From assembly GCA_035285865.1 (NCBI GenBank), contig JAYKHS010000014.1, positions 64,001 through 128,000 on the forward strand: a DNA stretch of 64,000 nucleotides, read 5' to 3'. The notes below the pieces were generated by a model. It saw only the letters and a list, made by a program, of their open reading frames with translations. It had not been told where the DNA came from and searched no databases. This DNA comes from Candidatus Sericytochromatia bacterium. Its GTDB lineage: Bacteria > Cyanobacteriota > Sericytochromatia > S15B-MN24 > VGJW01. Each line of letters opens with the position of its first letter. Position 1 is the stretch's first letter. This document shows positions 6,872 through 12,220 of this stretch, piece by piece. A program made the translations under genes and the position numbers.

Positions 6872-7825
6872 ATGGACGCGCAACAACTGGTGACGGCTGT
6901 CCCTGGCTGCGGACCGTCCCGACCCGTGGGCATGCTCCGGGTCGAGGGCACGGAGGCCGCCGCGTTCCTCAATGGCTACACGACCCAGGAGGTCGCCACG
7001 CTGGTCCCCGGCGAGGTCCGGCTGGGCGCCATCACCGACTGGAAGGGCCAGGTGACGGATGTCGTGACCTTCGCGGGCCTGACGGATGCGGTGCTGGTCT
7101 CGGGCAGTCCAGGTCGTGCAGCAGAAGTCCACAAGGGCCTGCGGCGCTACCTGCTGGGCGTCGATGTCCGGCTCATGCCCGTGAGCGGTTGGCTGGCCCT
7201 CGAGTTGGACCCTGGGGCACGCCCGATGCCCGCGGTTCTCGAGGATACCGGGGCCATTGCCGCCGTACTCGGTCTCTCGGGGGTGCCGGGAGTCCGGGCG
7301 GTGCTGCTCGGTGCGGTCACGCCCTCCGCAGGCCCCGCTGCGCGGTTGCTCGTCCCCGAGGGTGATCTCCCTGCCTGGGGTGAGGCGATTCGGGCCGCCG
7401 GGTGGTCGTCGCGAGACCAGGAAACCTTCGACCGCCAGCGGATCCGATCGGGCTGGCCGGAGCCGGACCGGGATCTGCCGGCGGCCTGCAATCCCTGGGA
7501 GGCGCGGCTCGCACCCTTCGTCCGCATGGACAAGGGCTGCTATCTGGGCCAGGAAGTCGTGGCCCGCCTGATCAACTACAAGCGCGTCCAGCGCTGGTTG
7601 ATGGGCACCCGGTCCACGGCGGCCGTCCCCGAGGGCACGCCCCTCCTTTCCGGTGAGGAAACGGTCGGTCGCATGGGCTCGTCCGTCCCGGATGCGGCGG
7701 GCCAATGGGTGGGCCTTGCCCTCGTCGGGGCTGCCTTGGCGGTGCCCGGCGCTGTCGTCCGGACAGCCGAGGGGCAGGAACTGACGCTTGAGGAGCGGCC
7801 CCTGTGGGCCGGGATCACGGATTGA
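6872..7825 (+). CDS. ygfZ: folate-binding YgfZ/GcvT-family protein
   Basis: DKGCYLGQEVVAR signature; FLNGYTTQ N-terminal region. Confidence 0.88.
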   Translation: MDAQQLVTAVPGCGPSRPVGMLRVEGTEAAAFLNGYTTQEVATLVPGEVRLGAITDWKGQVTDVVTFAGLTDAVLVSGSPGRAAEVHKGLRRYLLGVDVRLMPVSGWLALELDPGARPMPAVLEDTGAIAAVLGLSGVPGVRAVLLGAVTPSAGPAARLLVPEGDLPAWGEAIRAAGWSSRDQETFDRQRIRSGWPEPDRDLPAACNPWEARLAPFVRMDKGCYLGQEVVARLINYKRVQRWLMGTRSTAAVPEGTPLLSGEETVGRMGSSVPDAAGQWVGLALVGAALAVPGAVVRTAEGQELTLEERPLWAGITD

Positions 7826-8477
7826 GGCGTGATCGCAGCCAACGGATGCCGAGGATGCCGGCCAGAAGGGTAAGCTGACGCCAGTCCGCCCGGGCCGCGA
7901 CATGCGGCGAACGGGCCCGGGAGGAGGGGCCGGCATGTTGTCCTGCGGTCCCGGAGGCCACGGTCCACGACACCGCCACCGCCGGCATGCCCTTGAAGCA
8001 ACCGGTGTCGCCCGAGGCCGGATCGTGGACGAGGGCAAACTGCCAGGGTTGGCGGAAGTGGTGCGCGTGCGTGTGCTGATCCGTGCCCGAAAGGAAGACG
8101 CCAAGGCCGGGATGCGTGTGGTACCAGCCGACCACGGCAAGCTCCGGAGCTTCCCTCGCCATCCGCGCCAGCAGGGCGTCCCACGTTTGCGGGGTGAAGG
8201 CAAGATGCACGCCGGAGCCCAGGGTGTCGGGAGCCTCGAAGGCCGTGGTGGCCTCGATCAGCGTGTCGGTGGCGTCATGGTGGACCTTGCCGAGCAGCAG
8301 GCCGCCCACCTCGCAGGAAGGTGACGCGGCCCCATGCCGTTCGATCAGGGCCAGGCAGGAAGCGTGCAGCACCACCGACGCGGATGAGGCTGACGGCCCC
8401 AGCGCACGCCGCCGCCCGGCCGGGTCTGTCGCGGCCTCGACCCACGGATCGGGCGTGGTCTCGCGCCACTCGATCAC
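7815..8477 (-). CDS. JAB/JAMM (Mov34/MPN/PAD-1) metalloprotease, putative deubiquitinase or Ubl-processing enzyme
   Basis: EVGGLLLG...VVGWYHTHPGLGVFLSGTD, complete E...HxHx7Sx2D motif; GTG start. Confidence 0.9.
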   Translation of the reverse strand: MIEWRETTPDPWVEAATDPAGRRRALGPSASSASVVLHASCLALIERHGAASPSCEVGGLLLGKVHHDATDTLIEATTAFEAPDTLGSGVHLAFTPQTWDALLARMAREAPELAVVGWYHTHPGLGVFLSGTDQHTHAHHFRQPWQFALVHDPASGDTGCFKGMPAVAVSWTVASGTAGQHAGPSSRARSPHVAARADWRQLTLLAGILGIRWLRSRLNP

Positions 8478-8481
8478 GGCG

Positions 8482-8997
8482 TCAGACGTCCCGCCATTCG
8501 AGGCGCGGCTTTGCGACCTCGGTGGCTTCTGCCGGTCCGGGCCGATCGGCCAGCGGAAACAGGTCCGGATGGGCTTCGTACCAGTCCGCGGCCTCGCCGT
8601 TCGCTGCGCTGTCGAAGTCGAAGAGCTGCGGATCGCAACGCAGGATGTCGATCAGCCGCATCACGAGGTCGCCCAGGGTCTCCCCGACCATCCAGCGCGA
8701 TCCCAAGCAGAACGTGCCGTTGGCGAAGACATGGGGATGGAAGACCGGCGACAAGGCCCGGACGATCGGTGCCTCGAGCGGATAGGCCGAGGTCAGTCGG
8801 ATCTCGATGCGGTGCTGTTCGCGGCGGACCGGGGTTTCGCCATCCAGCTTCTCGATGGCGGGCATCGTCAGGCGGATGAGGTGCCTGTCAGGCGGGGTGC
8901 CTTGCGATTGCAGGACCTCGACCACCGTCGGCAGTGTTTTCGCCACGGCGGCCAGCGCCCGGGCATCGGCATCGAGGCGACGTCGGCGGGCCTCCAT
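8482..8997 (-). CDS. ubiquitin-conjugating enzyme (E2/UBC fold)
   Basis: YPLEAPIV...PVFHPHVFANGTFCLG..W....TLGDLV...AANGEAADWY; catalytic Cys present. Confidence 0.88.
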   Translation of the reverse strand: MEARRRRLDADARALAAVAKTLPTVVEVLQSQGTPPDRHLIRLTMPAIEKLDGETPVRREQHRIEIRLTSAYPLEAPIVRALSPVFHPHVFANGTFCLGSRWMVGETLGDLVMRLIDILRCDPQLFDFDSAANGEAADWYEAHPDLFPLADRPGPAEATEVAKPRLEWRDV

Positions 8998-8998
8998 C

Positions 8999-9259
8999 TC
9001 AGGCCCCGGCCTCCAGCAGCGGCACCACTTCGAGCAGGTCTCCGCTCTGGACGCCGCAGGGCCCGAGCGCACCTTGCGCGGGCAACTGTCGGCCAAGGCG
9101 GACGCAACGCAGCATGAAGTCGGTGTCGCGCGGCAGGCGCCAGTTCTGACGGCTGGCCTCGATCAGCTCCTCGACCGTGTAGTCGATGGGCAGCCGGACT
9201 TCGGCCTGCCGCGACTTGTCGAGGGTCCGAATGGTCACGGCAATCACGTCGTCGTCCAC
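8999..9259 (-). CDS. ubiquitin-like beta-grasp protein (EsaB/YukD-like, 86 aa)
   Basis: IAVTIRTLD...EVRLPIDYTVEELI...LGPCGVQSGDLLEVVPLLEAGA; AGGAGG SD before GTG; lies between E1 and E2. Confidence 0.8.
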   Translation of the reverse strand: MDDDVIAVTIRTLDKSRQAEVRLPIDYTVEELIEASRQNWRLPRDTDFMLRCVRLGRQLPAQGALGPCGVQSGDLLEVVPLLEAGA

Positions 9260-9263
9260 GGAT

Positions 9264-10406
9264 TCATTCCTCCTGAATCCATGATGCCCCACAGGCGACC
9301 CACTGCGTCGTCAGATCCGCGATGCCGATCACGTGACCGGCAACCAGGCCCCACTCCGCAAGAGTGCGGTCCCGGTTCGGGGTCGTACCGTCGATGGCCT
9401 CGAGGGTCGTGACCCAGCGCTCCTCGTGGCATCCCGGGCAGGCTGCATCCCGTCGGGAAACCCGCGCCACCGGAGCCAGCACGGCCTCTTCGGTGGCACA
9501 TGTCCTGCACTCTAGGCTCACGGCCACCGCGAAGGGCAGCAGGATGCGCCGGTCCGCGTGACCGGCCAGCAGGTCCGTCGGCCGGATGGCCTCGGGTGCC
9601 GGTCCCTGCGCGAGGTCCGGCAGGCATCCGTGCTCGGGGCAGGACTCGGTTTCGGGCAGCAGGTCCTCGAGAAGGACGGGCGGATGGAGTTGTAGGGTCC
9701 GGCGCGTGCCCGCCGCCATCGGGGTCCATGTCGGAAACGCGAGGGCCAGGACCTGGTCCACCAGCATGGCTCCGGCCAGGGAGGCCGTCACGGCAGTGGT
9801 GGGCACGGCCGTTCCCGAGGATTCGCGCAGCAGACCGGCACAACTGCGGGACGCCTGCAGGCGGCGTTGCATGCCGGGGGTCATGCCGCAGGCGTAGCAG
9901 GCACCTGTCGTCCCGTCCCCGTAGCGGCTGACCTGGCACGCCTCGGCAGACAGCCCTCCGTCCAGATAGGGCACGCCCGCCCGCAGGCAGAGGCGGTTCA
10001 GGGCAAGGCGCGCTCCGACGGAGTCGAGGCAGCCGATGACTGCGTCGGCCTTTCGGACCGTCGCGATGCCGAGGTCTGTCCCCACGTCCCCGATCACCGC
10101 CTCCACATGCAGGCCGGGAGACAGTTCGCGCAGGCGTTCGGCCGCGACGAGGGCCTTTGGGCGGCCGAGATCGTCCGTGCGGAAAAGCACCGAGCGCACC
10201 AGGTTGCTGGCCTCGATGCGATCGCGGTCGAGGACGAGCACCTGCCCCACCCCGACCAGGGCCAGACCCTTCAGAACCTCGTTGCCGAGCGCTCCCGCAC
10301 CCGCCACGATGATCCGGGTCCGGGCCAGTCGCTCCGTGTCCCAGCCGGAAATCAGGCGATGGCGGGCGTGTCGGTCCCGCTCCGGCAGGGGGAAGGCGTC
10401 GCTCAC
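9264..10406 (-). CDS. ThiF/E1-like ubiquitin-activating enzyme
   Basis: GAGALGNE, DRDRIEASNLVRSVLF, CLDSVGAR, CYAC, SC (putative catalytic Cys), CPEH, extra CRTC/CPGC ribbon, TLAEWGL C-terminal domain. Confidence 0.9.
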   Translation of the reverse strand: MSDAFPLPERDRHARHRLISGWDTERLARTRIIVAGAGALGNEVLKGLALVGVGQVLVLDRDRIEASNLVRSVLFRTDDLGRPKALVAAERLRELSPGLHVEAVIGDVGTDLGIATVRKADAVIGCLDSVGARLALNRLCLRAGVPYLDGGLSAEACQVSRYGDGTTGACYACGMTPGMQRRLQASRSCAGLLRESSGTAVPTTAVTASLAGAMLVDQVLALAFPTWTPMAAGTRRTLQLHPPVLLEDLLPETESCPEHGCLPDLAQGPAPEAIRPTDLLAGHADRRILLPFAVAVSLECRTCATEEAVLAPVARVSRRDAACPGCHEERWVTTLEAIDGTTPNRDRTLAEWGLVAGHVIGIADLTTQWVACGASWIQEE

Positions 10407-11068
10407 GCGTCACCCGCTCCGTTCAGCGTGATCTGCTCGGGCGACTTGGGCAGGATCTCGAGCCCGTATGCGGGATGATCCCGCAGCAGTCCGCGGACCC
10501 GGACGTACCGGCCGACCCAGTCCTCGAACCGGTGTCCGGCCTGCTCCCAGCGCTCGAGGTCTCCGCTGAACACGACCAGTTTGAAACCGTCGAAGGGATT
10601 TCTGCTGGCGTGGAACTTGATGAAGTGGGTGCCGGTGGCCCGCGAGACCTGATGACCCAGCACCCGCCCCTCGAAGACCACGACGGTGTTGGCATGGCCC
10701 TCGAGGTCCGAGAGGCCCAGCACGCGCTCGGCCTGCCGATCCCCCGCGACGAGTGCCACCTGCCCGGGTTGGCCCAGTACCTGCCAGGACATGCCCGAGG
10801 TCTGCCGGCAGTTGACGCAGGCACCCGCATTGTGGGTCTGGAGGAAGGTCCACGAACTGGGGTGGTAGCCGGTCTGGCAGTGGGTGCACAGGACGATGCG
10901 GGCCCCGGGGACAAGCGGTGTCCCGTCGAGGGGATCGTGTGCCGTGCCGCCGGATTGCCCGAAGCTCACGGGCCGCGCGGGCTCGGGTCCTTCCTCGCCG
11001 GGTTCCGGCGGGGCACCGTTGTCCCGCCATTCGAGCGGGCGTCGCCCCCTAGAGGGTGGGGACGTCAT
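10403..11068 (-). CDS. RING/PHD-like zinc finger plus OB-fold protein (candidate E3)
   Basis: DPLDG..L..G..IVLCTHCQTGYHPSSW...GACVNC, then OB-like VVVFEGRV...FKLVVF...WVGRYVRVRG...LEI. Confidence 0.65.
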   Translation of the reverse strand: MTSPPSRGRRPLEWRDNGAPPEPGEEGPEPARPVSFGQSGGTAHDPLDGTPLVPGARIVLCTHCQTGYHPSSWTFLQTHNAGACVNCRQTSGMSWQVLGQPGQVALVAGDRQAERVLGLSDLEGHANTVVVFEGRVLGHQVSRATGTHFIKFHASRNPFDGFKLVVFSGDLERWEQAGHRFEDWVGRYVRVRGLLRDHPAYGLEILPKSPEQITLNGAGDA

Positions 11069-11540
11069 GTCGCCAGCCTTCGCGCCAGTCGGGCAGGTTC
11101 GGGCGACCGTCGACCGTCAGCGCGATCCCGGTGTCCCCCAGCAACTCGACGGTGATCGGTTGGTCCTGCTCCTTGCCCTGGAGCAGGTCGGCACGGACCC
11201 AGAAGGCACTGCCCCCCAGTTGCAGGGAGACCCAGCCTTCGAGCGTATCGCTTCCGCCAAGCTTCCCCATGACGCAGCGCACCTTGCCGCGGCCCAGATC
11301 TCCCTGAATGACGGAACGGCGCGCTTCGATGCGGCGCCAGGCCCACCAGGAGGGGATCAGGGCAAGCACCCCGGGGAAGAGCCATCCGGGCTCGCGTGAC
11401 CAGGCGGCCGCGCAAGCAGGCAGCAAGGTCGGCAACCACGCCGCACGGCCGGCCCACCGGAGCCAGGTCATTCGTTGGCGCAGGTGGCGCCGCTCCTCGT
11501 TCGTCAGGCTGCGCTGCGAGGTGAGGAATGCCGCCTTCAC
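11049..11540 (-). CDS. hypothetical membrane protein (1-2 TM)
   Basis: hydrophobic AAWLPTLLPACAAAW and WLFPGVLALIPSWWAW; GTGA overlap with the upstream gene. Confidence 0.6.
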   Translation of the reverse strand: MKAAFLTSQRSLTNEERRHLRQRMTWLRWAGRAAWLPTLLPACAAAWSREPGWLFPGVLALIPSWWAWRRIEARRSVIQGDLGRGKVRCVMGKLGGSDTLEGWVSLQLGGSAFWVRADLLQGKEQDQPITVELLGDTGIALTVDGRPNLPDWREGWRHDVPTL

Positions 11541-12220
11541 GGCAACAGGCCCTCGGCACGGCACGCTTCGATGAAGCGCGTGGCACGGCCCGGATCAGGG
11601 AACGCCATGCGTCGGGTCAGGGCAGGCTCTGCGCTCTGGCCGGACTCGACCATGCCACAGCGCCTGTAGAAGAGGTCCGAGCCCGATTTCAGCAACGCGT
11701 CCAGCACCAGGGCTGCCTCGAGGCGCGAGGCCTCGTAGAGGGAGGCGACAAGCAGGAGCTTGCCGATGCCCTTCAGCGGCGAACCCGGCAGGCGCTCGAG
11801 GTATCGGACCTCGAGCACGGGCACCGGGCCACTGCGGTCCATCCCGACGGCGACTCCACCCACGATGCGCCGGGCCGTACCGCCGGGGTCGAGCAACTCG
11901 ACGACCATCAGGCTCGAGGCCTTGCCGAAATCCACGTGGCCCTTGACGTCGCGTCCCGACGCGCGGCCGAGGGCCAGCCCGACCCAGTCGAACCAGGTGG
12001 GCTCCGGCCAACGTGCGAAGACCTGCGCGTCCTCCGGTCGGCCCCTGCGGATGACCACAGGTACGGGCACACCGTCCGGGCCTGTCAGCGCGGCCATCTC
12101 GATCAGCCCCGCAGGGCGTGCCTGGCCGATCAGCGATCCGGTCGACGTGCGTTCGCCGGGACGCCCCGGTCCCTTGGCCTTCCGGGACTTCCGGCGCTTG
12201 AAGAGCCTGGAGAGCCACAT
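11537..12220 (-). CDS. GNAT-family acetyltransferase-like protein
   Basis: LEVRYLER...KGIGKLLL (motif A-like) and LFYRRCGM (motif B-like). Confidence 0.65.
   Translation of the reverse strand: MWLSRLFKRRKSRKAKGPGRPGERTSTGSLIGQARPAGLIEMAALTGPDGVPVPVVIRRGRPEDAQVFARWPEPTWFDWVGLALGRASGRDVKGHVDFGKASSLMVVELLDPGGTARRIVGGVAVGMDRSGPVPVLEVRYLERLPGSPLKGIGKLLLVASLYEASRLEAALVLDALLKSGSDLFYRRCGMVESGQSAEPALTRRMAFPDPGRATRFIEACRAEGLLP

Follow-up and report, generated by a model that had tools for sequence, protein, structure and literature searches.

Why should three different proteins of one ubiquitin-like (Ubl) conjugation operon begin or end with nearly the same five residues? The question is raised by a 64,000-nucleotide stretch of the Candidatus Sericytochromatia bacterium assembly GCA_035285865.1 (contig JAYKHS010000014.1, positions 64,001 to 128,000; hereafter the window), which carries on its minus strand, at 7815-11564, an operon of six genes. 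They encode, in this order, a transmembrane (TM) protein, a zinc-finger and OB-like protein (here RING-OB), an E1, a Ubl, an E2 and a JAB deconjugase. The peptide [LI]EWR[DE] stands at the C terminus of the E2 and at the N termini of JAB and RING-OB. The patterns of sequence and predicted disorder described below give good support to its being a short linear docking motif common to the E2, the E3-like protein and the deconjugase, and we consider it very probable that the peptide is functional in docking. The terminal peptides of the operon are as follows:

8485..8508, minus strand: E2 C-terminal motif PRLEWRDV; LEWRD at 8488-8502 is one copy of a 15-nucleotide repeat
8457..8477, minus strand: JAB N-terminal motif (M)IEWRET, read from a GTG start
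11021..11047, minus strand: RING-OB N-terminal motif GRRPLEWRD; LEWRD at 11021-11035 is the other copy of the repeat
11052..11093, minus strand: TM protein C-terminal tail PDWREGWRHDVPTL, loosely motif-like

The translations of the open reading frames (ORFs) confirmed the sharing of the peptide by three protein ends, as proposed in the first-pass annotation. The E2 ends with KPRLEWRDV; JAB, whose GTG lies 4 nt past the E2 stop, begins (M)IEWRETT; and RING-OB begins MTSPPSRGRRPLEWRD (in a longer form, MTSPPSRGRRPLEWRDNG), with LEWRD as residues 12-16. In general form the peptide can be written [RK]x(0-2)-Phi-x-W-x-[DE], where Phi is hydrophobic, represented here by RLEWRD, IEWRE and RRPLEWRD. 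The tail of the TM protein had been put forward as a similar motif, and on this point the likeness proved loose: the protein ends with LPDWREGWRHDVPTL, a Trp-, Arg- and Asp-rich tail which includes DWREGWRHD and fits neither the strict pattern used below ([LIVMF]xW[RKHQ][DE]) nor a relaxed one. This tail is identical in loci L001 and L002, differs in its last residue alone in L003, and reads LPLWLKLQL in L004 and SWRRWVELG in L028. Judged by its sequence, it is loosely similar to the motif, not a clear instance of it, and is conserved in the closest cluster only.

We predicted the structures of JAB and the E2 with AlphaFold2 (AF2), using alignments built in this analysis. The mean predicted local distance difference test (pLDDT) score is 85.8 for JAB and 92.1 for the E2; residues 1-8 of JAB fall below 50, and residues 150-171 of the E2 are left without secondary structure (block pLDDT 76, 64 and 67), which bears out the placement of the motif on tails outside the folded domains. 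As expected of a short linear motif, the peptide thus lies within a predicted disordered segment, both at the N terminus of JAB and in the E2 tail. Moreover, it forms a conserved island between variable flanks in the alignments of the E2 tail and of the RING-OB N terminus.

The peptide is rare in this genome, and its terminal occurrences are concentrated in the operon. The strict pattern is found 57 times in 581,956 residues of a crude set of 1560 ORFs retained by a filter on GC content at third codon positions, or at about 1e-4 per position. Near C termini, the E2 provides the only match; within the first 20 residues there are three, two of which are JAB and RING-OB. Three of the four terminal matches in the genome thus belong to this operon, and the fourth (LLWRE, at the N terminus of a likely membrane protein) is what chance predicts. 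A rough calculation from the genome rates gives a chance of about 1e-7 for three terminal matches in one six-gene operon. When E2 cores are compared with E2 tails, the strict pattern occurs at 0 of 11,001 core positions versus 18 of 81 distinct tails. Chance is therefore excluded for the peptide, by the genome-wide statistics and by those on E2 cores and tails.

Conservation was followed with a scan by E2 alignment of genome contigs (25 loci) and metagenome contigs (69 loci), which yielded 81 distinct complete E2s. At 60% identity these fall into 17 clusters, whose loci are Sericytochromatia-like or come from Verrucomicrobia, Acidobacteriota, Betaproteobacteria and metagenomes. Within the window's own E2 cluster the linker varies (DRPGPAEATEVAKP, ERPSPVVPEAPERA, EAPTSPAPQEPTPRP) and RLEWR[ED] is kept; relatives at 78% and 64% identity retain R[PA]RLEWR[ED]. 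The JAB start position is kept in all four close loci, with ATG, ATG, TTG and GTG as start codons, and independent gene calls (P0020-P0023) give the JAB start as MIEWRE. Of the 17 clusters, 7 have E2 tails that match the strict pattern and 10 have tails that match the relaxed one; for JAB N-terminal regions the counts are 6 and 11 of 15. Examples, with slashes between the proteins of one locus, are ISWVD / MIEWHE / LTWQE (L004), LFWRD and VDWKE / IQWRP (L005, Verrucomicrobia), VEWKE and IEWKN / AQWKE (L032), IKAWKE and EKWKE / TVWKESDDVFRP / RVLRWHDTDSP (L039), IAWRS / IVWRD (L033) and VRWSD / ISWTE (L037). Near-misses recognized by eye include IQGWYESA / ILWHES (Angelobacter), KLIWR / KLKWRD (L065) and VTWRED / WVWND (L038); L034 and L051 have nothing clear at the motif positions. 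Among the RING-OB homologues, 13 of 15 start with [RK][RK]..[ILV]xWx[DEN], the remaining two being called from a later start, and the linker that follows is variable and can be lengthened by insertions of tens of residues. The motif comes directly after the TM helix in cluster 1.

In broader homologue lists, the strict motif precedes the JAB core in 13 of the 17 best homologues and in 21 of the 120 listed. The end of the core could be placed in 68 of 150 E2 representatives, 51 of which have tails of at most 70 residues; these short tails include 6 with the strict pattern, 17 with the relaxed one and 26 with a Trp. Many E2 tails hold two copies of the motif 3-8 residues apart (VEWKEIKRIEWKNK, IKAWKEKSPKIEKWKE, LFWRDTGPKVDWKEV, SISWNDNPISWNNV; loci L032, L039-L059 and L005, and P0155 and P0180), and such a pair could form a Trp-zipper-like hairpin. 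Far from being absent in orthologues, a possibility which the first-pass annotation had raised, the motif is kept in the close ones and recurs in operons of several phyla.

The peptides of one operon also vary together. When an E2 tail is compared with its own JAB N-terminal region, the best ungapped 6-mer score averages 19.9, versus 17.0 (standard deviation 4.2) with those of other clusters; permuting the E2-JAB pairing gives p = 0.0013 for 15 clusters and p = 0.0011 for the 11 Trp-type clusters. Other motif types are found in other clades. In Blastocatellia-type genomes the E2 bears HTFVIK[RGQ]V and RFRIR and JAB bears MTFVIK[KN]V, and the small TM proteins beside E1 and Ubl carry TFLVKRA, KFQVKRQ or LFMVRRE just before a zinc ribbon. 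In another Acidobacteriota clade the E2 has VVIRLK or VVIKI and JAB has EIRIK or EIKIR; L050 pairs LITFTP on the E2 with IRFTP on JAB; and other JAB and E2 subfamilies have acidic I-x-I strands (PEIEIS, DDFEIVIL, DDFEIVILDDDEDFDIVVLR). As these alignments read, a switch of motif type affects every enzyme of an operon at once, and the window carries the Trp flavour of a wider habit.

As a separate observation, in Chloracidobacterium/Blastocatellia-type genomes the operon is split, with the E2 (with or without JAB) apart from the E1, the TM zinc-ribbon protein and the Ubl (L016, L018, L020, L101, L103, L104 and L096-L098).

We suggest that the peptide would serve as a tether on the flexible ends of the E2, JAB and the zinc-finger/OB E3-like protein. 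In an extended strand its hydrophobic residue and Trp would face the same side, beside the acidic residue, and plug into a shared receptor site, so that E2, E3 and protease would be concentrated locally around a common hub. Because the receptor site would be shared, binding of the enzymes would be mutually exclusive. The first-pass annotation had proposed a common surface on the Ubl or the E1; our candidate hub is the Ubl, in which a groove between strand 2 and helix 1, with Trp40 on its rim, could accept the strand. The Ubl has the highest identity to close relatives, 98% in L001 and 92% in L003 (80/78/64% for E2, 75/74/67% for E1 and 65/65/55% for JAB). Trp40 is near-invariant; its counterpart in the alignment with ubiquitin is E34, where helix 1 ends, a residue which we take to be exposed and to face strand 2. 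Position 40 is Trp in 18 of 18 rows with a Trp-type motif and F, G, L or M in 9 of 9 other rows, the 27 rows being chosen by hand from 19 Ubl-bearing loci of the genome and metagenome scans and 8 of the 26 loci of a further set, with loci that had no Ubl in reach left out.

The Ubl is our best guess for the receptor, one that we put a little below an even chance on this sequence evidence. For the explanation as a whole (a shared terminal tether, a common receptor site and the Ubl as best-guess hub), we see the case for and against as evenly balanced. A bolder extension, which we regard as doubtful, is a modular docking code in which each enzyme that meets the Ubl would bear a strand peptide whose flavour (Trp, basic TFVIK/VIRLK, F-T-P or acidic I-x-I) co-evolves with a Ubl pocket marked by residue 40.

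Several observations weigh against this explanation. As counted above, fewer than half of the clusters match the strict pattern, for the E2 (7 of 17) as for JAB (6 of 15), and several of the cases (IQGWYES, KLIWR, WVWND, IQWRP) are near-misses assigned by eye. The largest cluster, with 35 betaproteobacterial E2s, has a zinc-ribbon tail and a weak A-I-A-[WFL] remnant after the core (its JABs start with MRWTD and have a second copy, AAWRES), and L105 has the motif on JAB (MDWQE) with no Trp in the E2 tail. Outside the operon, the protein ends of the 1560 crude ORFs show no excess of the motif, and therefore no substrates are flagged by it. Since the E2 stop adjoins the JAB start, local duplication or conversion could add to the likeness of these two peptides. 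As for the receptor, the agreement between Trp40 and motif type needs three changes on the E2 tree, or one if well-supported branches only are counted; with just one to three independent events a sign test is not significant, and with so few switches many columns of E1, E2 or JAB would co-vary equally well. Trp40 might also be a core residue. The residue after the motif Trp and the residue after Ubl Trp40 follow no common pattern by eye in 12 clusters. Finally, a complex prediction of E1 and Ubl with E2 tail 142-171 as partner scored 0.56, 0.57 and 0.56, and its controls 0.00 and 0.00 with the tail replaced and 0.50 with the E1 replaced, the last of which falls short of the 0.20 margin required; the output listed no contacts. 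This single prediction neither supports nor opposes the putative binding by the motif.

The same tether could have another receptor. E1s recruit E2s in all known cascades, and the peptide might dock on the E1 of the operon, e.g., on its zinc-bearing, possibly UFD-like C-terminal part, making the E1 the hub for E2, E3 and protease. The E1 is encoded in the same operons and, given one to three switches, motif types would track its surface as well as that of the Ubl. We know of no reason, however, why docking on an E1 should be needed by an E3 or a deconjugase, and in close relatives the E1 is less conserved than the Ubl (75/74/67% versus 98/92%). We consider the E1 an unlikely receptor.

Alternatively, no separate receptor would be needed if the peptides paired with each other, Trp on Trp, in a small sheet joining the enzymes, possibly at the membrane. 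Near-identical strands on partners of one operon would suit such pairing, as would the double-copy E2 tails if they form a hairpin, Trp-zipper-like hairpins being stable; the DWREGWRHD tail of the TM protein, the C-terminal hydrophobic helix of JAB and the TM helix beside the motif in RING-OB homologues fit a membrane location. Five-residue strand pairs are weak alone, though, and single-copy systems such as that of the window would require three-way pairing. The match between Ubl residue 40 and motif type, itself a weak lead, is also left unexplained. On balance we find mutual pairing improbable.

Trp and Arg or Lys favour membrane interfaces, and the peptide could be an interface anchor that brings the E2 and JAB to a membrane-sited E3. 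The position of the motif directly after the TM helix in cluster 1 is consistent with this, and the TFVIK and RFRIR variants are basic and hydrophobic. Nevertheless, the motif always includes an acidic residue, the acidic strands of other subfamilies (DDFEIVILDDDEDFDIVVLR, PEIEIS) are unfit for anionic lipids, and the fine co-variation between partners is unexpected for lipid binding, which makes an anchor of this kind very unlikely.

There remains the DNA itself. The first-pass annotation had reported an exact 15-nucleotide repeat, and a search of the window confirmed it: the 15-mer GTCCCGCCATTCGAG lies at 8488-8502 and 11021-11035 and reads CTC GAA TGG CGG GAC (LEWRD) on the minus strand. 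No further copy exists within the window, even at up to two mismatches; in a shuffle control, 7 of 100 shuffles had at least two matches at up to two mismatches, and as DNA the repeat is thus unremarkable. The identity and the position of the motifs at gene junctions (E2 and JAB 4 nt apart, the TM stop overlapping the RING-OB start) are what a translational coupling repeat, a regulator site or recent gene conversion could leave, and the probability that two independent LEWRD share all codons under this genome's codon usage (P = 0.035) leaves room for local conversion. JAB in the window, however, encodes IEWRE with other codons (ATC GAG TGG CGC GAG); synonymous and conservative changes distinguish the E2 and RING-OB copies of L001-L003 from one another and from those of the window (CTC GAG TGG CGG GAG, CTG GAT TGG CGG GAC), with CTC GAG TGG AGG GAG and, in L003, ATC GTC TGG CAA GAC as further orthologue codings; and other clades have copies separated by tens of codons or placed in overlapping frames. 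Because orthologues and JAB keep the peptide with other codons, we rejected a DNA or RNA role of the 15-mer: its identity is a by-product of coding one peptide, without a function of its own, and by the pattern of codons it is on the peptide, not on the DNA, that selection acts. A nucleic acid feature, like chance, which the peptide statistics exclude, is thus highly improbable as the origin of the likeness.

The tether on E2, JAB and RING-OB has to be seen within the operon, whose genes are the following:

11049..11564, minus strand: TM protein, 171 aa, two-helix, open reading frame
10403..11068, minus strand: RING-OB, zinc-finger and OB-like protein, 221 aa, Prok-RING_1 at 19.7 bits
9264..10406, minus strand: E1 (ThiF), 380 aa, Pfam PF00899, 7.4e-44
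8999..9259, minus strand: Ubl, beta-grasp, 86 aa, Pfam YukD, 7.2e-06
8482..8997, minus strand: E2 (UQ_con), 171 aa, ATG at 8997, Pfam PF00179, 3.8e-08
7815..8477, minus strand: JAB/MPN metalloprotease, 220 aa, Pfam PF01398, 2.9e-11

With a ThiF E1, a UQ_con E2 with catalytic Cys, a JAB with JAMM motif and a beta-grasp Ubl, the operon is of the eukaryote-like prokaryotic Ubl conjugation type; its closest named relatives are metagenome-assembled genomes labelled Sericytochromatia and Tanganyikabacteria. In the E2, whose profile matches solved E2s, the catalytic C97 and FHPHV are invariant in the alignment, and in JAB so are the catalytic residues E56, H120, H122, S130 and D133. JAB residues 199-218 (7815-7880) form a confidently predicted hydrophobic helix (LTLLAGILGIRWLRSRL) at the C terminus in the AF2 model, preceded by ADWRQ; the helix is present in L001-L003, is missing from most other clades and is a possible membrane anchor. 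The Ubl gene is preceded by AGGAGG; in a profile alignment the Ubl matches residues 10-76 of ubiquitin. The Ubl ends with LLEAGA (8999-9010) and its relatives with AG, AGG, AGN, AGRG, AGRGDV or GGCR, which is consistent with trimming after Gly85, where JAB may remove 0-4 residues past the conserved Gly.

RING-OB scores 19.7 bits against Prok-RING_1 (PF14446), below the Pfam cut-off of 29.1. A single Cys4 site (C61, C64, C84 and C87) and H69 are kept in 15 homologues (about 10800-10890 in the window), and by these residues its "RING" may be a single-zinc treble clef instead of a cross-braced RING, which has two zinc sites and 8 ligands. The TM protein matched no family in a Pfam search and is syntenic in L001-L004 and L028. 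The last 20 nt of its gene (11049-11068) overlap the start of RING-OB in a different frame (ATGACGTCCCCACCCTCTAG), an overlap which L001-L003 share. A single protein combines TM helix, motif, zinc finger and OB in cluster 1 (L039 and others); by this comparison the two genes of the window look like a stable split, or the cluster 1 form like a fusion.

Three side observations concern neighbouring or related genes. A 227-aa ORF on the same strand upstream of the operon (11537-12220) has no Pfam hits at E 0.01. At L006 (6540-8000) the gene after the E2 encodes a 486-aa protein, not JAB, whose start, we assume, resembles RtcB RNA ligase. In a JAB subfamily of about 380 aa (P0034, P0038, P0045, P0060 and similar), about 225 residues at the N terminus form an extension which starts ..YALAI..VVYDL..IGSAEDNHIVL and looks, by eye, FHA-like.

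How does the operon, with its terminal peptide, compare with known systems? Prokaryotic eukaryote-like Ubl operons were reportedly described by comparative genomics by Burroughs, Iyer and Aravind in 2011. The operon of the window is like the prokaryotic Ubl/E1/E2/JAB/RING operons, including that of Caldiarchaeum, in gene set and domain families, and there too the small zinc-finger E3-like protein is often membrane-linked; Caldiarchaeum and related systems are treated in PMC3082918, PMC5654768 and PMC6043591, of which we consulted excerpts. The passages searched in PMC5654768 describe no shared terminal motif and no tail, extension, or non-covalent or backside contact for a prokaryotic Ubl system, and the Bil/Bub literature, in the parts consulted, concerns other operon types. 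A full-text literature search, whose reach did not include Burroughs et al. 2011, returned excerpts with no account of such tails in bacterial systems, nor of a tested function or mechanism for the bacterial forms of these computationally predicted operons. The operon type and the Ubl-docking linear motifs of SUMO, Atg8 and UFM1 are thus already known, and this bacterial terminal peptide is new as far as that search reaches.

The first-pass annotation had likened the peptide to a SUMO-interacting motif (SIM) or an Atg8-interacting motif (AIM). The docking part of that proposal stood, given the disordered ends, conserved islands, recurrence and co-variation, and membership in either class did not. 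A SIM joins its Ubl as an added strand, in the groove between beta2 and alpha1. In the SUMO enzymes (the SAE2 tail, SENPs, PIAS and RanBP2 E3s) they resemble the present peptide in being short, strand-forming and disordered and in occurring on several enzymes of one Ubl cascade. Their core is [VIL]x[VIL][VIL] (or [VIL][VIL]x[VIL]) with an acidic flank, whereas here Phi-x-W is followed by x-[DE] and usually preceded by basic residues; with Trp and Arg in the core, LEWRD and IEWRE do not fit the SIM consensus. The variants DFEIVIL and PEIEIS of other clades look SIM-like. The partner differs as well, being SUMO in the one case and, in the other, putatively a ubiquitin-like Ubl. The role of SIMs in the SUMO pathway is reviewed in PMC12687455, which we saw in part.

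The likeness to the LC3-interacting region (LIR) or AIM lies in an aromatic-centred linear motif which, within one Ubl system, is found on both the deconjugating protease and the E2. LIR/AIMs on Atg3 (E2) and Atg4 (protease) bind Atg8/LC3 and, like the UFM1-interacting motif (UFIM) on UBA5, are aromatic-centred and often near the protein end. Of the peptides of the window, WRDV of the E2 fits the LIR/AIM core [WFY]xx[LIV], and WRET of JAB and WRDN of RING-OB fail it; relatives are mixed. Moreover, the two pockets of Atg8 depend on N-terminal helices, which the 86-aa Ubl lacks. A third parallel is the anaphase-promoting complex/cyclosome (APC/C), on which LRRL and IR C-terminal tails dock UBE2S, Emi1 and the co-activators. 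There too, an E2 and regulators compete through their terminal peptides for one hub site; the hub is an E3 scaffold and not a Ubl, and the tails have no sequence likeness to our motif.

If the Ubl is the hub, the peptide would be, by analogy, a functional counterpart of eukaryotic SIM, LIR/AIM and UFIM docking. Whatever the receptor, a shared and co-varying peptide is a handle on the system, which points to residues for mutation and can serve as bait for the receptor, and the matched and mismatched variants of other clades form a natural set with which specificity can be tested. With a receptor other than the Ubl, the motif would lead to the hub that the system still lacks; if the receptor is indeed the Ubl, the reading of Ubl proteins by linear motifs is not a eukaryotic invention. 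Were the docking code true, Ubl recognition of the SIM/LIR type would have a forerunner in prokaryotes, or would have been invented there independently.

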